From an uncultured Gemmatimonadaceae bacterium (GTDB lineage: Bacteria; Gemmatimonadota; Gemmatimonadetes; Gemmatimonadales; Gemmatimonadaceae): a stretch of 64,000 nt of DNA. The position numbers and the translations under genes were made by a program. This document shows positions 47,950 to 59,126 of this stretch, in pieces. The notes below the pieces were generated by a model. The model did not search any database and was not told the origin of the DNA. It worked only from the letters and a program-made list of their open reading frames with translations. The DNA is taken from contig CAVXGK010000001.1 of NCBI GenBank assembly GCA_963761305.1, positions 928,001-992,000 of the forward strand, in the 5' to 3' direction. How positions within the stretch are numbered: position 1 is the first letter of the stretch; each line of letters opens with the position of its first letter.

Positions 47950-49719
47950 TCACGACGCCGCGCGAACGTCCACCCGCTCGGGCACGCCGAGACCGATGCG
48001 ACCCGAGGAATCAGCACCCACTGTGTGGACGTAGAAATACGTCGCGCCATCCTCCGATGACGGCATCACCGCCGAAGGCGCGGAGAGAATCAGCACGTCG
48101 CCGCACTGGCCCATCCAATCGATGTGGCGATGACCGTGCATGACCACGGCGCGAGTGCCGACCCGCTGCAAGCGACGCGCGAACCAGTTCCCGTTGATCA
48201 GCGTCGTCCCGATGCGCTCGGCGATCGAATGGCCGAGCTTGGGATGCTCGACGATGTGATGGTGCAAGGCGACGATCCAGCACGCGCGCGGGAACGCGCG
48301 CATCGCGACGTCGAGCGCGTGAGCTTCTTCGGCCGCCACGAGCCCGAGCGCGTTCGTGAACGAGAAATGGGTCTCGGCGTTGGAATTCAGCACGATGACG
48401 CCGAGCCCGTCGTCGCGTGCAGGCGGCCGCACCATCGGAAACGCGGCGGACCACGCCTCGCCGCTCACCTTGCCGAGCCGGCGGGAACCGCTGTCCGCGA
48501 AACCCGCGATGTCCTCTGCCTGTGGTGCGAGCGCACGGTCGAGCGACTCGCCCATGCGGCCTTCTTTCTCGTCGACGACACGAACTCGCGTTCCCTGTAG
48601 CGCCGCCAGCGCCGACAGCGTGCGCACCTCGCGGAGACGCTTCTTCGGACTCGTCGGCAGATCGAGACGCGCCGGATTCGCGCGATCGATGATGTTCACG
48701 TCGTGATTCCCCGGCAGCGCGACGACGAGTGGTTCCAGACGCGGAAAACCGGCGAACACGTCGAGCAGCTCGCTCCACTCGGCGGACGTGCCGGCGTCGG
48801 TGAGGTCTCCGGTGATGACGACGGCGTCGAGCGGGTCGCGGCGATGGATCGCGTCGAGTCGTTCGAGCGCGACGATGAGCGCGTCGTTGCCGCGCGTCCC
48901 GGCGCGTCCGCTGCCGAGTCGAAACCCGTAGCGTTCGCCGACGACGTGAATGTCCGAGAGATGCGCGACGCGCCACGAACGCACGAAGTCGCCGGGCGGA
49001 TGAAAGGCGACGAGCTCTCGCGGCTGGGGCATCGTCGCGTCGGCCATTCCCCACACCAGCGCGGCGATCGCGAGATACGCCGTCGCGACCGCCGTCGCGT
49101 TCGCGAGCGCGGTGAGGAAAAGCCAATGCGGCGTTCGAAAATCGGAAAGCGAGCCGACCCAGTGCGTCGCCGGCCAGACCAGACGCAGCACGACCAGCGC
49201 GAGCGCACAGATGATCACGCCGGAGACCGCCGACGCCGCGGCGCGTCCGCGCATGCGCGTCGTCTCGCTCGCGGCGGCACCCGTCAGACGACTCGACAAA
49301 TGGAGGAGGAGCTCACGCCACGCCACGTAGCCGGGCTGTATCGCCATCGCGTTCAGCGACCAGAAGCTGCGCTCGACGACGCGGAACAGCGATCGGCCGC
49401 CGAACCAGGCCAGCGCGAGGAGCGCGACGAGGAAGAGCAACGCGCCCGCTCCGGTCGCTCCCGGCGTCGTCGCGAGCTTGCGGGCCCAGATCGTCGCGAT
49501 GATCGGCGCGAGGCCCAGCAGCACAGCCGGCACGACGATCAACATCACCAGCGCGACGGCCATCTTCGGAAGGCTGACTTCGGCGAGCAGATTGCCCGCG
49601 ATCGCGAGGAGCGAGCGCCGCTCCGGGCTCGACTCGTCGGTCTCGACATCGCCGCCGCGCGGGTCGACGAGCGGGGGCCGGCGACGGTCGAGTGTTCTCA
49701 CGCGCGCCGCGCTCGACAT
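47950..49719 (-). CDS. Membrane-anchored metallophosphoesterase
   Basis: N-terminal TMs; HLSDIH, ITGDLTD, PGNHD, ALHHH, HGHRH. Confidence 0.85.
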   Translation of the reverse strand: MSSAARVRTLDRRRPPLVDPRGGDVETDESSPERRSLLAIAGNLLAEVSLPKMAVALVMLIVVPAVLLGLAPIIATIWARKLATTPGATGAGALLFLVALLALAWFGGRSLFRVVERSFWSLNAMAIQPGYVAWRELLLHLSSRLTGAAASETTRMRGRAAASAVSGVIICALALVVLRLVWPATHWVGSLSDFRTPHWLFLTALANATAVATAYLAIAALVWGMADATMPQPRELVAFHPPGDFVRSWRVAHLSDIHVVGERYGFRLGSGRAGTRGNDALIVALERLDAIHRRDPLDAVVITGDLTDAGTSAEWSELLDVFAGFPRLEPLVVALPGNHDVNIIDRANPARLDLPTSPKKRLREVRTLSALAALQGTRVRVVDEKEGRMGESLDRALAPQAEDIAGFADSGSRRLGKVSGEAWSAAFPMVRPPARDDGLGVIVLNSNAETHFSFTNALGLVAAEEAHALDVAMRAFPRACWIVALHHHIVEHPKLGHSIAERIGTTLINGNWFARRLQRVGTRAVVMHGHRHIDWMGQCGDVLILSAPSAVMPSSEDGATYFYVHTVGADSSGRIGLGVPERVDVRAAS

Positions 49720-49819
49720 GCGCACGAGGGGTCGCAAGATATGTGCGTCCTGTGCGCTCGTTCGGCCTTGTCGCGGCGACGCCTCCAATAGTAGGGTTTC
49801 TCCTCGACTATTTTCCGCC

Positions 49820-51208
49820 ATGCGAGCGGAATCAGCCGTCCCGGTCCCCTCCCCGCAGATTCTCGTCGCCGACGATCAGGCGGACGTGCTCGAAGCGTTG
49901 CGCCTGTTGCTCAAGGGGCACGGCTACGACGTTCACACCGTCAACTCGCCGAGCGCCGCGCTCGCCGCACTCGAGCGCCGCGACTTCGACGCGATGCTGC
50001 TCGACATGAACTACGCGCGCGATACGACGTCGGGCAAAGAAGGGCTCGACCTGCTCGCCTCGCTCCAGACGCTCGAGCCCAACATGCCGGTCGTCGTCAT
50101 GACCGCGTGGGGGAGCATCGACAACGCGGTCGAAGCGATGCGCCGCGGCGCGCGCGACTACGTCGAGAAGCCGTGGGACAACGCCCGACTCGTCTCGATG
50201 CTCGGCGTGCAGGTGGAGCTCGGCCGCGCGCTGCGGCGGGCGCAGCGGCTCGAGTCGGAGAATCGCCTGCTGCGGCGCGACCATCTGCCGCAGATGATCG
50301 CCGAATCGCCGAAGATGAAGCCGATCGTGCAGCTCATGGAGCGCATCGGTCCGTCGGATGCGAACGTGCTGATCACGGGCGAACACGGCACGGGCAAGGA
50401 GCTCGTGGCGCAGTGGCTGCACGCGGCATCGGCCCGCGCCGCGCGGTCGTTCATCGCCGTGAACCTGGGCGGGCTGTCGGAGGGCGTATTCGAGAGCGAA
50501 CTGTTCGGCCACGTGCGCGGCGCGTTCACCGACGCGAAGACCGACCGCGTCGGCCGGTTCGAGCTGGCCGACGGCGGCACGATCTTCCTCGACGAGATCG
50601 GCACCGTGCCGCTCGGGCTTCAGTCGAAGTTGCTCCGCATGCTGCAGACGGGCGACGTCGAGCGCGTCGGGTCCTCGAAGGCGCGGCACGTCGACGCGCG
50701 TGTCATCTCGGCGACGAACGCGAACCTCCAGCAGGAGGTCGCTGAAGGGCGGTTCCGCGAAGACCTGCTGTTCCGGCTCAACACGATCGAGGTCAGCCTG
50801 CCGCCGCTGCGCGACCGCCGTGAGGACATTCCGGCGCTGGCCGCGCACTTCCTCCGCCGCCACGCGACGCGGTATCACAAGGCGCTTGGCGGATTCGACG
50901 CGGGCGGCATGCAGGCGCTCCTCTCGCACGGGTGGCCCGGCAACATCCGCGAGCTGGACCACGCGGTGGAGCGCGCCGTGCTCATGGCGCCAGGCGACCA
51001 GGTGCGCGCGTCGGACCTCGGCCTGCGCCCCGCGGGCGGGGGCGGGGGGCCGGCGCCGCGGCTGGACGAGCTGCCGCTCGAAGACGTCGAGAAAATGCTC
51101 ATTCAGAAAGCGCTATCGCGATACGACGGCAACGTCAGTCGCGCCGCCCAAGCCCTCGGCCTGTCGCGGAGCGCGCTCTACCGGCGCATCGCGTCGCATG
51201 GCCTCTAG
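49820..51208 (+). CDS. Sigma54-dependent NtrC-family response regulator
   Basis: ILVADD, LLDMNY, GEHGTGKE, ESELFGHVRGAFTDA, LDEIG, WPGNIREL, Fis HTH. Confidence 0.94.
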   Translation: MRAESAVPVPSPQILVADDQADVLEALRLLLKGHGYDVHTVNSPSAALAALERRDFDAMLLDMNYARDTTSGKEGLDLLASLQTLEPNMPVVVMTAWGSIDNAVEAMRRGARDYVEKPWDNARLVSMLGVQVELGRALRRAQRLESENRLLRRDHLPQMIAESPKMKPIVQLMERIGPSDANVLITGEHGTGKELVAQWLHAASARAARSFIAVNLGGLSEGVFESELFGHVRGAFTDAKTDRVGRFELADGGTIFLDEIGTVPLGLQSKLLRMLQTGDVERVGSSKARHVDARVISATNANLQQEVAEGRFREDLLFRLNTIEVSLPPLRDRREDIPALAAHFLRRHATRYHKALGGFDAGGMQALLSHGWPGNIRELDHAVERAVLMAPGDQVRASDLGLRPAGGGGGPAPRLDELPLEDVEKMLIQKALSRYDGNVSRAAQALGLSRSALYRRIASHGL

Positions 51209-52598
51209 GCGCCGCACGCCGCCGGCGGGGAGCACCACGCCAGCCACGCGGCCGTCGTCCGACCAGCCGCCCCGCGAGCCGCATCACGAGCGCCTGATCT
51301 TCCGCCTCGCGCTCCTCGCCGGCTTTCCGGGCGTGGCGGTCTCGATGGTCCTGTTGTGGCGCGGCGAGTTCAGCCCGAGCGTGCGCTGGACCCTCGGCCT
51401 CGTCGTCGTCGGCACGTGGCTCGCCTTGGCGGTCGTGTTGCGCGAGCGAGTCGTGCGGCCGCTGCAAACGCTCTCCAACATGCTGGCCGCGCTGCGCGAG
51501 GGCGACTACTCGATCCGTGCCCGCGGCGCCGACCGCGACGACGCGTTGGGCCTGGCGTTCATGGAATCGAACCTCCTCGGCGAGACGCTGCGCGCGCAGC
51601 GGCTCGGCGCGATGGAGGCGACGGCGCTGCTGCGCACCGTCATGGCGGAGATCGACGTCGCCGTGTTCGCGTTCGACGACGCCGAGCGCTTGCGTCTCGT
51701 GAATCGCGCCGGCGAGCGGCTGCTCGCGCAACCGGCCGAGCGGTTGCTGGGGCGGACCTCGGAGCAGGTCGTACTCATCGACGTGCTCGAAGGAGCGTCG
51801 CCGCGCACGATGGACGTCACGTTCGCCGGCGGATCGGGGCGATGGGAAGTGCGGCGCGGATCGTTCCGACAGGACGGGCGACCACACACGCTGCTCGTGC
51901 TCTCCGACGTGAGCCGCACCCTGCGCGAAGAAGAGCTGCAAGCGTGGCAGCGCATCGTTCGCGTGCTGAGCCACGAGATCAACAACTCCCTCGCGCCGAT
52001 CCGCTCGATCACGGACACGCTGCTGTCGCTCCTCGACCGGCCGACGCGCACCGAAGACGCCGACGAAGATCTGCGGCGTGGACTCACCGTCATCGGCGGG
52101 CGCTCCGAAGGGCTCGTGCGATTCATGTCGGCGTACGCGCGTCTCGCCAAGCTTCCGGCGCCGAACAAGGCGCCGCTCGACGTCGGCGCATGGATCCGGC
52201 GAGTCGCGTCGCTCGAGACGCGGGTGCCGATCCGAGTCGTCGCCGGACCCGCCGCCACGCTCGAGGCGGACGGAGACCAGCTCGACCAGCTCCTGATCAA
52301 TCTCGTTCGCAACGCGGCCGACGCCTCGCTCGAGACCCATGGCGACGTGCGGATCCGCTGGTCGCGTCGCAACGGCACCCTCTCGCTGATGGTCGAGGAT
52401 GAAGGTCCGGGGCTGGCCAGCGCCTCAAACCTGTTCGTTCCGTTCTTTACGACCAAGCCGCAGGGTTCGGGCATTGGCCTGGTGCTGTCGCGGCAGATCG
52501 CCGAGGCGCATGGCGGGTCGCTCTCGTTGGCGAACCGGACCGACCGGCGCGGATGCATCGCGACGGTGCGGTTCGAGCTCGGTCCGCCAGCCGTCTGA
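51198..52598 (+). CDS. Sensor histidine kinase (NtrY-like, PAS)
   Basis: Two TMs; LSHEINNSLAP, NLVRNA, DEGPG, FFTTKPQGSGIGL. Confidence 0.93.
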   Translation: MASRRRTPPAGSTTPATRPSSDQPPREPHHERLIFRLALLAGFPGVAVSMVLLWRGEFSPSVRWTLGLVVVGTWLALAVVLRERVVRPLQTLSNMLAALREGDYSIRARGADRDDALGLAFMESNLLGETLRAQRLGAMEATALLRTVMAEIDVAVFAFDDAERLRLVNRAGERLLAQPAERLLGRTSEQVVLIDVLEGASPRTMDVTFAGGSGRWEVRRGSFRQDGRPHTLLVLSDVSRTLREEELQAWQRIVRVLSHEINNSLAPIRSITDTLLSLLDRPTRTEDADEDLRRGLTVIGGRSEGLVRFMSAYARLAKLPAPNKAPLDVGAWIRRVASLETRVPIRVVAGPAATLEADGDQLDQLLINLVRNAADASLETHGDVRIRWSRRNGTLSLMVEDEGPGLASASNLFVPFFTTKPQGSGIGLVLSRQIAEAHGGSLSLANRTDRRGCIATVRFELGPPAV

Positions 52599-52644
52599 CG
52601 AACCCAAGCGGTCCCGCGAGCGATTCGCCATTGGCCTTTCGGCA

Positions 52645-52659
52645 CGGCATGACCTATGC
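52645..52659 (+). promoter_or_regulatory. Sigma54-type -24/-12 promoter
   Basis: CGGCATGACCTATGC (GG-N10-GC); same spacing to the leader motif as at 53779. Confidence 0.55.
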
Positions 52660-52673
52660 TTGAGTACGTTGTC

Positions 52674-52760
52674 GTGCCGCGACGGAGAACCGTCGATCGG
52701 AGCGACGCGAGAGCGACGTTCCGCCCAGCTATCGTCCGCGGGGGCCTGTGAGGACGGATC
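52674..52760 (+). ncRNA. Candidate structured 5'-leader RNA, copy 1
   Basis: CGACGG/CCGTCG hairpin; CGGAGCG/CGTTCCG stem enclosing CGC-GAGA-GCG; crossing pairs GCCC/GGGC and CGTCC/GGACG. Confidence 0.6.
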
Positions 52761-52773
52761 AGGGGAGCGAGCC

Positions 52774-53628
52774 ATGGATCGACGACAGATCACCACATTG
52801 TTGGCCGCCGCCGCGGCGCTGAGCGCGCTCGGGACGACCATCCTAGCCGCGCAGGACACAACGAGAACCGGTCCGCGATCGACACGGACAATCCCAATAA
52901 GGAAGGAGGCGGCGGGCGAGATCGCGAAGCCGATTCACGACACCGTGACGGTGTACCGCACGGACACACTTCGCCTCACGACGCCACCCGTCACGGTTCA
53001 CGACACGGTGACGCGAACCAACACGGTTACGGTCACTCACACGGACACCGTCACACTCACGCCCGTCGCGCCGCCGGTTCGGCTGCCGAACGGTATGTAC
53101 ATGGGCCTGAGCGCCGGCCTGAGCGCGCCGAACGGCGCGTTGTTCAACCCGAACAACACCGGGCCGAGCGCGCAGTTTCAGCTCGGTTGGCAGGACGCGC
53201 TGAAGGTGTTGGGCCTGCGTGGCGACGTGAACTGGACCTCGCCGGGCCAGGATGCCGGCTTCGTTCATTTCCCCAGCTCGCCCCACGGACAGATCTTCAA
53301 CTTCAGCCTGGACGCCAAGGCGCAGCTCCCGTATCTGCACCACACGTTCGGCGCGAGCCACCTGTTCTCGCTGTACGCGATCGGCGGCTACACACACACG
53401 ATGTTCAAGAACGTCGGCCTGCGCGTCGATTCACCGCCGGGTACGCTGCTCTTCGCGCCCGCCAATGATTCGTGGTCGAATCAGAACGGTTGGAACGCCG
53501 GCGGCGGCGCGTCGCTGATGTGGGGCCGGACGGAACTGTTCGCCGAGTCTCGCGTGCTCGCGTTCACGCCGGATAACGCGCCGATGGCTCGGCAGATGCC
53601 CTTCATGCTCGGGCTGAACTGGTACTAA
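52774..53628 (+). CDS. Outer-membrane beta-barrel protein with DT-rich N-terminal stalk (paralog 1)
   Basis: Signal peptide; HDTVTVYRTDTL repeats; amphipathic strands; GWNAGGG..ELFAESRV; C-terminal LNWY. Confidence 0.8.
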   Translation: MDRRQITTLLAAAAALSALGTTILAAQDTTRTGPRSTRTIPIRKEAAGEIAKPIHDTVTVYRTDTLRLTTPPVTVHDTVTRTNTVTVTHTDTVTLTPVAPPVRLPNGMYMGLSAGLSAPNGALFNPNNTGPSAQFQLGWQDALKVLGLRGDVNWTSPGQDAGFVHFPSSPHGQIFNFSLDAKAQLPYLHHTFGASHLFSLYAIGGYTHTMFKNVGLRVDSPPGTLLFAPANDSWSNQNGWNAGGGASLMWGRTELFAESRVLAFTPDNAPMARQMPFMLGLNWY

Positions 53629-53679
53629 CCGCCGAATCGATTCGGGACGACGAGACCGTCGTCCCGCCGCGCGGACGAG

Positions 53680-53720
53680 AGGACAGCGACCAGTTCGTTC
53701 GGGTCGCTGTCCTTTTTTTT
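53680..53720 (+). terminator. Intrinsic terminator
   Basis: AGGACAGCGACC/GGTCGCTGTCCT stem followed by a T run. Confidence 0.85.
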
Positions 53721-53778
53721 GTCGACATGCTTCCGTCTGCTCGAGGCGATTTCGAGAACCTTTACGATTCGGGTATCT

Positions 53779-53793
53779 CGGCACGGCCCCTGC
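53779..53793 (+). promoter_or_regulatory. Sigma54-type -24/-12 promoter
   Basis: CGGCACGGCCCCTGC (GG-N10-GC). Confidence 0.6.
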
Positions 53794-53807
53794 CCTGGAC
53801 TGCGGCG

Positions 53808-53906
53808 GTGCCGCGACGATTTCAGTCGCCCGGAATGTTGACGAGCACTCTCGCTCGAGCACGTTCCGCCCGGGAGCCGTCCCCGTGGGGCGAGTCGAGG
53901 ACGGTG
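53808..53906 (+). ncRNA. Candidate structured 5'-leader RNA, copy 2
   Basis: GCGAC/GTCGC; CGGAATGT/ACGTTCCG; CGAGC/GCTCG; crossing CGCCC/GGGCG and CCGTCC/GGACGG. Confidence 0.6.
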
Positions 53907-53922
53907 GAGAGGAGGAGACACA

Positions 53923-54888
53923 ATGTTGAAGGGTCATGCGTTCGTCCTCGCTGCCGGCGCGGCGTTAATTGCGCTCGACGCGTCGGCGTCTCTAGCGCAG
54001 GACACAACTCGCGCTCGTCCGCATTCGACGAAGCGCATCTCGGTGAAGAAGGAAAGCGGCGAAGTCGCGCCGATGCCGAGAGTCGACACGGTGACGATTT
54101 TCCGCACCGACACGATGTCCATCACGCGTATCGATACCGTGACGCAAACGAACACGGTCGTACGCACGGATACGTTGGTGCAGACGATCACCCGGCCGAT
54201 TCCCGCGTCCGGTAACTGGTACGGCGGGTTTGCTGCCGGCGTGGCGGTGCCGGCCGGCGGTCTGCAGAACTTGAACGAAACCGGTGGTACAGGCCAGTTG
54301 CAGTTCGGTTATCAGCCCGTGCACAGCATTTTGGGAGGGCGCATCGACGCCTCGTACTCGCGCTTCCGCCGACCGTTCGGTTTCGCGGATGACAACTTCG
54401 CGGTTGCGACGCCGTTGCTCGGCTTCACGAACGTCTTCACCCGCCAGCCTGACATCTGGAACTTCAACCTCAACCTGAAGGTCCAGGTCCCGGGAGTCGA
54501 AGGCTGGTTCGGTCATGCAGTCACCTTCCAGCCATACCTGATCGGCGGCGGCGGTTTCGCAACCTACGATCACCTGCCGGTCGAGTTCAGCGACGGATCG
54601 TTCCTCATCGTCCGCAATGGATTCGTGCAAACGACGAACGGCATCATCGTCAACGGCCTGAGCGTGGACAATTTCGACACCGGTTGGCACACGAGTTGGG
54701 GTTGGAACGCCGGCGGCGGTTTGGCGTGGCGCTTCGGACACCAGGAGCTGTTCGTGGAGTCACGCGTGCTCGGGTTCAACACGAGCCGCAACGACTTCTT
54801 CAACAACACGAACATCAACGGCATCGACTTGCCCAGCTTCCGGTCGGCACGTCAGGTCCCGATCGTCTTCGGCATGAACTGGTATTAA
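53923..54888 (+). CDS. Outer-membrane beta-barrel protein (paralog 2)
   Basis: AGGAGGAG RBS; signal peptide; VDTV repeats; C-terminal MNWY. Confidence 0.82.
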   Translation: MLKGHAFVLAAGAALIALDASASLAQDTTRARPHSTKRISVKKESGEVAPMPRVDTVTIFRTDTMSITRIDTVTQTNTVVRTDTLVQTITRPIPASGNWYGGFAAGVAVPAGGLQNLNETGGTGQLQFGYQPVHSILGGRIDASYSRFRRPFGFADDNFAVATPLLGFTNVFTRQPDIWNFNLNLKVQVPGVEGWFGHAVTFQPYLIGGGGFATYDHLPVEFSDGSFLIVRNGFVQTTNGIIVNGLSVDNFDTGWHTSWGWNAGGGLAWRFGHQELFVESRVLGFNTSRNDFFNNTNINGIDLPSFRSARQVPIVFGMNWY

Positions 54889-54925
54889 TGGATCAGGCAG
54901 TAGTAGTCAGTTAGGACAGAACGGT

Positions 54926-54974
54926 CGCGGCAGGCTGGGCGCTTCGGATGGTTCCGGCGCATCAACCTGCCGCG
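54926..54974 (+). terminator. Hairpin homologous to the 56117 terminator but without a U-tract
   Basis: CGCGGCAGG...CCTGCCGCG followed by TCGCTG. Confidence 0.45.
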
Positions 54975-55001
54975 TCGCTGCCCCTGCCCTGGACTGCGAC
55001 G

Positions 55002-55102
55002 GTGCCGCGACGATTTTGAGTCGCTCGGAATGTGTAGACGAGCACGATCGCTTGAGCACGTTTCGCCCGGAGGCCGTCCGCGGGGGCGAGTTGAGGACGG
55101 TG
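55002..55102 (+). ncRNA. Candidate structured 5'-leader RNA, copy 3
   Basis: GCGAC/GTCGC; CGGAATGTG/CACGTTTCG; CGAGC/GCTTG; crossing CGCCC/GGGCG and CCGTCC/GGACGG. Confidence 0.6.
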
Positions 55103-55118
55103 GAGAGGAGGAGACACA

Positions 55119-56060
55119 ATGTTGAAGGGTCATGCGTTCGTCCTCGCTGCCGGCGCGGCGTTCATTGCGCTCGACGCATCGGCGTCTCTAGCGCAGGACA
55201 CAACTCACGCTCGTCCGCATTCGACGAAGCGCATCTCGGTGAAGAAGGAAAGCGGCGAAGTCGCGCCGATGCCGAGAGTCGACACGGTGACGATTTTCCG
55301 CACCGACACGATGTCCATCACGCGCGTCGACACCGTGACGCAGACGAACACGGTCGTACGCACCGATACGCTGGTGCAGACGATCACCCGGCCGATTCCC
55401 GTGGTCGGCAACTTCTACGGCGGATTCGCCGCCGGCGTCACCGTTCCGTCCGGAGGGCTCGATGTACTGAACGAGACCGGCGGCACGGGCCAGTTGCAGT
55501 TCGGCTGGCAACCCGTCCACAGCATCCTTGGCGCGCGCCTCGACGGGTCGTACTCGCGGTATCGCCGGGCATTCGGCTTCGACGACAACTTTGCCGTCGC
55601 CACGCCGTTGCTCAACTTCACGAACGTCGACACCCGCGAACCGAACATCTGGAACTTCAATCTCGATCTGAAAGTCCAGATCCCGGGTATCGAGAGCGCG
55701 TTCGGTCATGCGGTCACGTTCCAGCCGTACCTCCTGGGCGGCGGCGGGTTCGTCACCTATGATCACCTGCCCCTTCAGACGCGCGACGGGGCGTTCATCG
55801 TAGCTCGCAATGGAATCCTCCAGACGTCGAACGGCGTGATTCTCACCGGCGTCACGGTGGACAATTTCGACACCGGTTGGCACACGGATTGGGGTTGGAA
55901 CGCTGGTGGCGGACTCGCTTGGCGCTTCGCGAACAAGGAGCTCTTTGTCGAGTCGCGCGTGCTCGGCTTCAATGCCCATTCCATCAACAACGTCTTCCCG
56001 AACGTCAGCTTCCGTTCGGCGCGCCAGGTTCCGATCGTCTTCGGTATGAACTTCTATTAA
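55119..56060 (+). CDS. Outer-membrane beta-barrel protein (paralog 3, tandem duplicate of paralog 2)
   Basis: First ~90 aa nearly identical to 53923..54888; C-terminal MNFY. Confidence 0.82.
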   Translation: MLKGHAFVLAAGAAFIALDASASLAQDTTHARPHSTKRISVKKESGEVAPMPRVDTVTIFRTDTMSITRVDTVTQTNTVVRTDTLVQTITRPIPVVGNFYGGFAAGVTVPSGGLDVLNETGGTGQLQFGWQPVHSILGARLDGSYSRYRRAFGFDDNFAVATPLLNFTNVDTREPNIWNFNLDLKVQIPGIESAFGHAVTFQPYLLGGGGFVTYDHLPLQTRDGAFIVARNGILQTSNGVILTGVTVDNFDTGWHTDWGWNAGGGLAWRFANKELFVESRVLGFNAHSINNVFPNVSFRSARQVPIVFGMNFY

Positions 56061-56116: not shown

Positions 56117-56170
56117 CGCGGCAGGCTGGGCTGTTCGGTGAAGCACCGACGCATCAGCCTGCCGCGTTTT
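56117..56170 (+). terminator. Intrinsic terminator
   Basis: CGCGGCAGGCTG/CAGCCTGCCGCG stem followed by TTTT. Confidence 0.7.
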
Positions 56171-56276: not shown

Positions 56277-57116
56277 ATGAGTAGGATATTGAAGTCTCGA
56301 TGGATCGCCACGCTTCCGGCGGCGATCCTTTTTGTCATTTCGTCTCAAGCCCACGCACAAGGCCGGCATCCACGCTCGGAAGCCGCCAAACGCCTGTGGC
56401 ACCCATCCAAGGACTCGACCGCCGCAATCGACGACTCCGACGACGTCGCGCTTCACTTCGATTCCCGCGCCGACAGCCTGTCGTGGCTGCGCGGCCGCGA
56501 CCTCGCCCATAAATCGTCAGGCCTTCGTCTCGTCGTCTCGCTCCAGGAGCGCCACCTCTGGGCGATCGCCGGACACGACACGCTGCTGAGCGCACCGGTT
56601 GCCGTGGCCAAAGGAACGACCCTCGAGTATGGAAGCCAGAGCTGGCATTTCACTACGCCGCGCGGCGTCCGCACCGTACTCGAGAAAAGCGCCGACCCCG
56701 TCTGGCAGCCGCCCGAGTGGCTCTATGCCGAAACCGCGGTCGAGAACGATCTCAAACTCGCGCATCTGAACTACGGCCAGCGCATCCATCTCTCCGACGG
56801 ACGGCTTCTCACCATCGTCGACGGGTCCGCCGGCATCATCGACACCGACGGCTCGTTCGGCGAGCTGCCGACCGACGAACACATCGTCTTCGGCAACACG
56901 CTCTACATGCCGCCGATGGGCTCGAAGAACCGCAAAGTCGAGGGCGAGCTCGGCAAGTACAAGCTCAGCCTCGGTGACGGGTACCTGTTGCACGGCACGC
57001 CCGACAAGCAATCGATCGGCATGGCGGCAACGCACGGCTGTATCCGCCTGCGCGACGAAGACATCGAGTGGCTGTACGACAACGTCCCGGTTGGGACGAA
57101 GGTGTACATCTTCTGA
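56277..57116 (+). CDS. L,D-transpeptidase (YkuD family)
   Basis: Signal peptide; PVAVAKG..FTTPRG; YLLHGT; ATHGCIRL; PVGTKVYI. Confidence 0.9.
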   Translation: MSRILKSRWIATLPAAILFVISSQAHAQGRHPRSEAAKRLWHPSKDSTAAIDDSDDVALHFDSRADSLSWLRGRDLAHKSSGLRLVVSLQERHLWAIAGHDTLLSAPVAVAKGTTLEYGSQSWHFTTPRGVRTVLEKSADPVWQPPEWLYAETAVENDLKLAHLNYGQRIHLSDGRLLTIVDGSAGIIDTDGSFGELPTDEHIVFGNTLYMPPMGSKNRKVEGELGKYKLSLGDGYLLHGTPDKQSIGMAATHGCIRLRDEDIEWLYDNVPVGTKVYIF

Positions 57117-58034: not shown

Positions 58035-59126
58035 CTATCGCGGTGCGATCAACCGATCTCCGACGGCGATGATCACGAATTCGTCACGACGATTTTGTTT
58101 CCAGCAGTCTTCGTCGTGTCCCTGACACACCGGTCTCTCTTCGCCATTGCTCGCCACGTCGATGCGGCCGGCGTCGATGCCGTGATCGATCAAATACTTC
58201 CGCGTCGCCTGCGCGCGACGCATGCCGAGCGCCAGGTTGTACTCGTCCGACCCACGCTCGTCGGCGTTGCCCTCGATGCGGATGCGCACCGCGGGATTCG
58301 CTCGGAGCACCGGAATCTTGGCGTCGAGAATCGCGCGCTGATCGCCGCGCAGATCCGACTGATCGAAGTCGAAGTACACTGCCGCGAGGAGCGCCTCACG
58401 CGCACGATTCACCGCGTTGACCGAGTCGGTGTTCGGTCCTGTCGGAGCGATACGCGCCGGAGGCGGCGTCGGCTCGGGGCGCGGTGGCGGAGCTTGGCGC
58501 TGCGGCGGCGGCGGCTGCCCTGCGACGGTCGGCGGTGAAGGAGCGCTTGAGTTGCCGAGCAGCCAGCTGAGCCCCGCTCTGATCTGAAGATTCGTCGATC
58601 GCGCCGCGGCGTCATTCACCCCCGACACGGGCGGAAATCCGAATGTGGCAGCCGTCGGATTCTCGACGTACTCCACGATCCCGTCGAGTCTGAGCGCCAG
58701 CGAATTCGTGAAATGCAGTCGAAGGCCGCCGCCGAACGGTGCCGAAAAATCAGAGTGCGATGCGAAGCGCTGCCCACCCGCCCCAGCTTCGAGGATCAAG
58801 TCGTGGGTCTGCCCCGCGAACCCGAACGGGAGGTTGAAGTTGATCTGCCCGTCGAACGTCTGAACCGAGCTCGTTCCACTCGCGCGCGGCGCCTGATTGT
58901 TGAACGACGCCGCTGAGAAGGTCCCCTCGAGCTCGAATCGGCGATTCAGGAAGATTCCGAGGCGTCCGCCGAGTCCGAAACCGTCGTCGGTGTGCCACGC
59001 TTCGTCGGCCCGCGTGAACTGGCCGAACACCCCGACCTCGGTCGTGCCGAATTTTTGGGCGGCGGCCTCGGCCGACGCAATACACACGAGAAGGAAGCTG
59101 GCCACAGCCAAACGCTGCATGCGCAT
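58035..59126 (-). CDS. OmpA-like protein: N-terminal beta-barrel, Pro-rich linker, Pal-type C-terminal domain
   Basis: Signal peptide; amphipathic strands; VYFDFDQSDL, IEGNADERGSDEYNLALGMRRA, NGEERP, QNRRDEF. Confidence 0.88.
   Translation of the reverse strand: MRMQRLAVASFLLVCIASAEAAAQKFGTTEVGVFGQFTRADEAWHTDDGFGLGGRLGIFLNRRFELEGTFSAASFNNQAPRASGTSSVQTFDGQINFNLPFGFAGQTHDLILEAGAGGQRFASHSDFSAPFGGGLRLHFTNSLALRLDGIVEYVENPTAATFGFPPVSGVNDAAARSTNLQIRAGLSWLLGNSSAPSPPTVAGQPPPPQRQAPPPRPEPTPPPARIAPTGPNTDSVNAVNRAREALLAAVYFDFDQSDLRGDQRAILDAKIPVLRANPAVRIRIEGNADERGSDEYNLALGMRRAQATRKYLIDHGIDAGRIDVASNGEERPVCQGHDEDCWKQNRRDEFVIIAVGDRLIAPR

Follow-up and report, generated by a model that had tools for sequence, protein, structure and literature searches.

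A conserved pseudoknot leader RNA before stalked outer-membrane β-barrel genes of Gemmatimonadaceae

The window analysed here is a stretch of 64,000 nucleotides (nt) from an uncultured Gemmatimonadaceae bacterium (GenBank assembly GCA_963761305.1, contig CAVXGK010000001.1, positions 928,001 to 992,000 of the forward strand), and its subject is a structured leader RNA that occurs three times in it, each time directly before a gene of one outer-membrane protein (OMP) family. The leader comprises a hairpin (P2), a variable stem (P3) and an H-type pseudoknot built from helices P4 and S2, and is followed by the Shine–Dalgarno sequence (SD). Taken together with its homologs, it is a real, narrow and undescribed family of cis-acting RNAs, absent from Rfam 15. 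The promoters, leaders and genes are arranged as follows.

52645..52659, plus strand: sigma-54 −24/−12 box of copy 1, full GG-N10-GC
52671..52773, plus strand: leader 1, with a predicted transcription start (+1) at about 52671 from sigma-54 spacing
52680-52695 and 52698-52723, plus strand: helices P2 and P3 of leader 1, from the sequence and homolog covariation
52724-52726/52740-52742 and 52733-52737/52752-52756, plus strand: knot helices P4 and S2 of leader 1, from the sequence and homologs
52762-52767, plus strand: SD of leader 1
52774..53628, plus strand: OMP 1, 284 amino acids, with a signal peptide, a low-complexity stalk rich in aspartate (D) and threonine (T), and an 8-strand β-barrel
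53779..53793, plus strand: sigma-54 −24/−12 box of copy 2, full GG-N10-GC
53805..53922, plus strand: leader 2 (P2 53814-53828; P3 53831-53868)
53869-53873/53883-53888 (one bulged T) and 53876-53882/53899-53905, plus strand: knot helices P4 and S2 of leader 2
53906-53917, plus strand: SD region of leader 2
53923..54888, plus strand: OMP 2, 321 amino acids, same family as OMP 1
54985..54987, plus strand: remnant of the copy 3 promoter, a −12 TGC without a −24 box
54999..55118, plus strand: leader 3 (P2 55008-55023; P3 55026-55065)
55066-55069/55081-55084 and 55073-55079/55095-55101, plus strand: knot helices P4 and S2 of leader 3
55119..56060, plus strand: OMP 3, 313 amino acids, 80% identical to OMP 2

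The sequence GTGCCGCGACG starts at 52674, 53808 and 55002, in each case 15 nt 3′ of the C in a TGC, just as a preliminary description of this locus had claimed, and the CGAC/GTCG hairpin (P2), the variable stem P3 and, in copy 1, the GAGA loop are likewise present as described there. The H-type knot proposed at the same time stands with one correction: the interleaved pattern CCC..CGTCC..GGG..GGACG is found in all three leaders and S2 covaries, but the first stem is CCCG/CGGG (3 base pairs (bp) in copy 1) and not GCCC/GGGC. Within the 5.2-Mb genome (66% G+C) the interleaved pattern has three sites, all of them in this window; the 11-mer GTGCCGCGACG by itself has many occurrences. As evidence for a structure the three copies are weak when taken alone, because the second and the third arose by a recent duplication (94% over 300 nt) and none of the three folds better than its shuffles (single-sequence z-scores of −0.63, +0.80 and −0.43). 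The support for the structure comes from homologs.

In a scan of the window with Rfam 15, there is no match at the gathering score and only chance-level matches at E-values of up to 10, in agreement with the earlier impression that no Rfam family is present. The leaders of 10 divergent homolog loci have no Rfam 15 match either, and the ribozyme covariance models of that release give no match to self-cleaving families. The leader belongs to no tested family, and no prior description was found in a literature search whose scope excluded subscription journals and the motif lists of supplements.

Helix support and range of the motif

A sequence-only parse of 273 stalked genes yields 170 distinct leaders (88 failed, and the rest are duplicates or too short). 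The final set consists of 169 leaders (effective 73), with one false parse dropped, three rows re-anchored and one 5′ part blanked. Compensatory events were counted on a protein tree and compared with a tree-aware null of 4000 draws; genomes G007, G247 and G471 enter the tallies as rows, and the structural counts do not use their sequence.

Helices P2, P3 and S2 are supported by covariation, with 5, 25 and 9.6 compensatory events against null values of 0.64, 3.7 and 1.6, respectively (p ~0.0002 in each case), counts that exceed all 4000 null draws. When 68 dissimilar 3′ modules, with ends set by the parse, are aligned with MAFFT, the RNAalifold consensus is again S2, and six of the seven S2 pairs change on both sides. 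The support for P4, and hence for the knot topology, comes from conservation (near-invariance), since P4 itself lacks significant covariation. Its four core pairs hold in 66, 68, 63 and 64 of the 68 modules (G-U allowed), with a U-A swap in two rows; over the four pairs of CCCG/CGGG, 258 of 272 cells are paired and one more is G-U. P4 is kept in L394, L408 and L470, where S2 is lost. The register GCCC/GGGC shows 2 events against a null of 0.38 (p 0.048), but is paired in 78–96% compared with 95–99% for CCCG/CGGG; as the first knot stem of the 68 modules it is 85.7% paired, has no two-sided change and was rejected for the better-pairing CCCG/CGGG. Alternative knot registers are weaker. A further helix, P1 (GCC/GGC), which would close a four-way junction, is possible: the 5′ GC is conserved at 95–96% and the GGC after P4 at 77–90%, and the two may pair together. 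Except for this 5′ GC, the columns conserved at 95% or more are all helix positions, and the best loop or linker columns reach 35–74%.

Measured in 151 leaders, the distance from the S2 core to the SD is 4–23 nt (8 nt in 74), and the SD never starts inside the knot; the S2 core ends 16–23 nt before the start codon in most of the 169 leaders and never less than 14 nt before it. P3 spans 0–168 nt. Modules are lost separately, as one genus lacks both P3 and GCC/GGC, another keeps P2 only, L295 has the knot alone directly behind the previous stop codon, and other lineages carry unrelated hairpins behind the same promoter. The motif is a covariation-supported RNA family in a poorly studied phylum, the modules of which are mapped by natural deletion variants. 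Within one genus (L173, L204, L207, L362 and L368), P3 is enlarged to 150–168 nt with conserved hairpins of its own, and in L187, L198 and L200 a variant 3′ module appears to form nested hairpins in place of the knot.

The motif has been seen solely in front of genes for one family of Gemmatimonadaceae proteins, the stalked 8-strand β-barrels. Among genes with at least 200 nt upstream, the knot core precedes 167 of 247 stalked genes versus 1 of 30 barrel-only paralogs. A covariance model gives 59 matches of at least 50 bits in 29 of the 31 genus genomes, followed by a gap down to 28 bits, and 38 of 40 motif-like sites in later-fetched loci precede this OMP family, the remaining two being one probably mis-picked start and one weak match. 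RNA model R1, run over 150 family genomes, matched 13 others, weak matches included. Over 150 phylum genomes, the best outside match of model R2 is 30.4 bits, and none of the five inspected has motif parts; this search also missed the known divergent leaders G029 and G057, and its result therefore reads as 'not found in those searched'. A pattern scan of genome contigs for the knot is uninformative on range because chance dominates it, with two true Gemmatimonadaceae-type leaders among the at least 120 matches listed. On the protein tree, motif gain and loss amount to 30 changes over 258 tips, with noise in both label and tree. In sum, homologs support the proposal of an undescribed, conserved and structured pseudoknot leader before an OMP family and behind a sigma-54 promoter.

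Promoters and transcript start

The GG-N10-GC box claimed in the preliminary description is full before copies 1 and 2 and reduced to its TGC before copy 3, and the loss of the −24 box of copy 3 is shared by four related loci. A sigma-54-type box precedes 202 of 247 stalked homologs versus 3 of 30 barrel-only paralogs, the gap from the −12 GC to the conserved GCC is 16–17 nt in 109 of 147 leaders, and a sigma-54 gene is encoded in the genome, so that a GG-N10-GC box at a fixed distance and the factor to read it are both found. Because the −12 GC lies 16–17 nt before GCC, the usual sigma-54 spacing between box and start would place +1 approximately 8–9 nt before P2.

A metagenome collection contains 20 contigs that start at most 200 nt from the start codon. 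In six of them the starting base is exactly that of P2, two more begin at +1 and about +3 relative to that base, and none (0/20) starts within the 20 nt before P2, a pile-up with a probability of ~1e-7 under a uniform null that ignores relatedness. Several of these contigs terminate within the terminator, and together they look like assembled transcripts starting near P2. In two soil metatranscriptome runs (word shares of 0.07 and 0.05; stored as contigs), the coding regions of relatives are covered and the leaders barely, which gives no start information.

Each of the three genes is followed by a hairpin.

53681..53720, plus strand: intrinsic-terminator-like hairpin with T8 after gene 1, as read from the sequence
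54926..54974, plus strand: G+C hairpin without a T run after gene 2, adjoining the truncated copy-3 promoter
56117..56170, plus strand: terminator-like hairpin with T4 after gene 3

The hairpin after gene 2 resembles the gene 3 terminator except for the absent T run. With the −24 box lost and the preceding hairpin lacking a T run, copy 3 is therefore probably transcribed by read-through from promoter 2. The region 54926-54987 is the duplication breakpoint, and the second and third leaders of G095 are identical to each other, which suggests a recent duplication or conversion.

We note that the −24 sequence CGGCAC is the reverse complement of GTGCCG in the leader, which creates an inverted repeat across the promoter (52641-52679 and 53779-53813); if +1 lies between the two arms, this repeat is probably coincidental. 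Directly upstream of the cluster, 49478-52598 encodes an NtrC-type sigma-54 activator and a PAS histidine kinase. The activator is a candidate for activating these promoters, and the kinase has matches in 63 fetched loci, mostly of close relatives.

Possible functions of the leader

Our preferred reading, which we hold tentatively, is that of a constitutive structured 5′ untranslated region (UTR) that may raise the output of an abundant envelope protein by shielding the messenger RNA (mRNA) and opening the SD. Its observed part consists of the fold, the fixed place behind the sigma-54 box and the fixed gap to the SD; the functional steps are those that we infer. Transcription would start ~8–9 nt before P2, and access of RNase E/G to the 5′ end would be hindered by P2, perhaps together with a four-way junction that pairing of the 5′ GCC with the conserved GGC would close. 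The H-type pseudoknot of P4 and S2, with ~9–12 stacked pairs, would obstruct RNase E scanning toward the coding region. The knot would also tie up a C-rich strand that could pair with the SD, so that the SD would stay open just outside the helix.

This reading is ranked first because the host encodes RNase E/G (PF10150, E 9e-101), because knots have a precedent as obstacles, and because the SD opens upon knot locking: with the knot bases locked, predicted SD openness in the three window copies changes from 0.44, 0.63 and 0.45 to 0.79, 0.94 and 0.91. Also consistent with it are the position of the SD outside the knot, the separate loss of modules, the wide span of P3, the transcript-like contig starts at P2, and the lack of an RNase J match over the cut-off in 41 genomes. 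The precedent for knots, reported in PMC9943677, is that RNase E scanning from a 5′ monophosphate is hindered in E. coli by H-type pseudoknots of 8–15 coaxial pairs and not by simple or orthogonal stem-loops. The leader has, within its 5′ UTR, a coaxial H-type knot of at least 8 pairs, made of the covarying S2 (5–7 bp) and the conserved P4 (4–5 bp).

Several results weigh against the protective reading. About one third of the stalked genes lack the knot. Neither P4 as CCCG/CGGG (2 events versus a null of 0.61, p 0.12) nor P1 (2.2 versus 0.9, p 0.23) covaries significantly, and a stricter column-wise test passes a single pair, the central U-A/C-G of S2 (E 0.02). Family-wide, knot locking adds little SD openness (mean 0.43 to 0.51; a gain above 0.3 in 19% of 151 leaders), a comparison of 5′-terminal pairing did not separate the groups (control of n=4 promoters), and the transcript-shaped contigs come from libraries of unstated type. 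Finally, exact sequence is conserved far more strictly in P2, P4 and S2 than in P3; a purely generic barrier would have no need of this, and it suggests that a partner recognises these helices.

The E. coli ompA 5′ UTR is an mRNA stabiliser with a 5′-proximal hairpin and an open ribosome-binding site (RBS) in an RNase E host. By analogy, the leader would work most like this stabiliser with a scanning-obstacle knot added. Compared by description and not by sequence, the two have in common a structured leader, a putative 5′-proximal hairpin, a message for an 8-strand β-barrel OMP, an RNase E host and an open RBS; P2, the possible counterpart of the ompA-type 5′ hairpin, covaries and starts 8–9 nt after the inferred +1. 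Unlike ompA, the leader has a sigma-54 promoter, a possible four-way junction, a pseudoknot and a predicted 8–9 nt before the first proven helix. Flaviviral exonuclease-resistant RNAs (xrRNAs), which need a 5′–3′ exonuclease, also have a junction closed near the 5′ end and a last hairpin loop that pairs with the 3′ tail, whereas here the closing helix P1 is unproven and RNase J was not found (none of the 41 genomes searched in the order passes the TIGR00649 cut-off, and 9 matches are weak and partial). On the basis of these 41 genomes, an xrRNA-like exonuclease block was removed from consideration. The obstacle knots of PMC9943677 resemble the leader in that a 5′ UTR pseudoknot (~9–12 coaxial pairs here) separates the 5′ end from the coding region; those reported there are viral or telomerase knots transplanted into E. 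coli reporters, whereas the leader would be a natural, ligand-free case from Gemmatimonadota. If the protective reading is true, the leader would offer a natural example, with no ligand involved, of a pseudoknot retained as an RNase E barrier; until now this role has been shown mainly with transplanted knots. The leader might also serve as a portable mRNA stabiliser.

The tight sequence of P2, P4 and S2 relative to P3 keeps in play a second reading, a protein-bound leader as in the preliminary description, which we regard as possible and less probable than the protective one: ribosomal protein S1 at a standby site, or an RNA-binding protein on P2 or the knot, would set translation, for example in envelope-stress feedback, with the CCC strand toggling between knot and SD. 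The near-invariant helix sequences of P2 and P4, the single gene family downstream and the fixed knot-to-SD gap are consistent with it, as are nested folds, in which S2 has a probability of 0.55 and P4 of 0.13 and the P3-3′/CCC strand is the main SD partner within the leader. A precedent is found in PMC7708055, where an S1-binding 5′ pseudoknot is required for tisB translation. The leader, too, has a 5′ UTR knot that could bind S1, but the RBS of tisB is sequestered and lies ~100 nt away, whereas here the SD lies ~8 nt past the knot core and is partly paired. Moreover, the four window neighbours tested include no candidate RNA-binding gene, the loops are variable, and the SD is not consistently buried, so a standby site is not obviously needed.

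A new functional RNA class seems unlikely, whether as a riboswitch that senses some ligand or ion related to the envelope or as a self-cleaving RNA with a new fold; in either form it would control a possibly peptidoglycan-tethered barrel. Its riboswitch form, an orphan translational ON switch whose four-way junction and knot would be stabilised by a ligand or ion, with the SD freed or RNase E blocked as a result, is by itself quite improbable. The pseudoknot riboswitches preQ1-II/III, SAM-II/V and guanidine-III have an H-type knot close to the RBS, and the leader resembles them in its junction-plus-knot architecture beside the RBS; its highly conserved 5′ GC has no clearly covarying partner, and its weak P4 could need a ligand. 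Unlike them, it has no Rfam match, its loops are unconserved, with few conserved unpaired bases, and its SD lies outside the knot and never forms a knot helix. The 5′ GC and the GGC, which may pair together, are its only candidates for conserved unpaired ligand contacts. Whole modules are dispensable, the downstream genes are one envelope-protein family without metabolic genes or a metabolite clue, and in the genomes searched the leader is known from one bacterial family only. The riboswitch or thermosensor of the preliminary description is thus disfavoured by the helical nature of the conserved columns, the position of the SD and the envelope family downstream.

The self-processing form, in which a cut just 5′ of P2 would leave a hairpin-capped 5′-OH end on which RNase E acts poorly and so stabilise its own message, in a host in which RNase J was not found, is highly improbable. 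It would account for the contig starts at the first base of P2, with none in the preceding 20 nt, and the conserved GCC(R) precedes the site, but the loss of ~8 terminal bases in complementary DNA (cDNA) libraries explains the pile-up equally well; there is no conserved unpaired core, no Rfam ribozyme family matched, and one genus lacks GCC. We give as little credence to a DNA-level element, with P2 as a palindromic operator, inherited similarity and no RNA function. P2 is a near-invariant inverted repeat with a spacer of 5 nt in 80 of 131 cases, but the spacer varies from 4 to 10 nt, the P2 repeat accompanies 2 of the 173 sigma-54-like boxes in the genome, both at this locus, and the covariation of P3 and S2 as RNA helices largely refutes this reading for both. 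Least credible is an RNA thermometer, for which some SD pairing in knot-free folds might speak, but the helices have a high G+C content and none of the conserved ones, weak or otherwise, contains the SD.

Downstream genes and neighbours

The structure model of OMP 1 (predicted local distance difference test score of 76.5) shows an eight-strand barrel preceded by a signal helix and a disordered stalk, and the closest structures are the NspA, OmpX and OmpA barrels at 11–15% identity. The eight strands, signal peptide and aromatic C-terminus of an 8-strand OMP β-barrel are all found. Pfam and NCBIfam scans of the window OMPs give no match; PF13505 matches 6 of 29 family members and does not match the window proteins, and the atlas neighbours of the OMPs are Gemmatimonadota clusters, one of which has PF13505 in 77% of its members. 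Among 250 phylum genomes, stalked full-length forms occur only in the family of the window and barrel-only paralogs across the order, and the OMP profile at E 1e-42 has matches in 125 of 400 family genomes.

One further gene follows the cluster.

56277..57116, plus strand: L,D-transpeptidase (YkuD) gene, PF03734 E 3.8e-23

Such a gene comes next after 32 of 53 stalked genes that are last in their cluster, versus 2 of 17 barrel-only genes, and a RIP(I/V)xK motif is present in 152 of 169 motif-bearing genes. According to PMC11841132, L,D-transpeptidases tether β-barrels to peptidoglycan in other bacteria, once via a lysine. By analogy, the lineage-specific stalked barrel, perhaps attached by the neighbouring L,D-transpeptidase, is a candidate tether of outer membrane to peptidoglycan. 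The stalks (52850-53080 and 54040-54200) are rich in D-T or D-S (aspartate followed by threonine or serine) with V, L or I next, a pattern that resembles the O-glycosylation sequon of Bacteroidota. On the minus strand, 58035-59126 encodes an OmpA-family protein with a β-barrel and a peptidoglycan-binding domain, the upstream region of which has no match to the RNA model.

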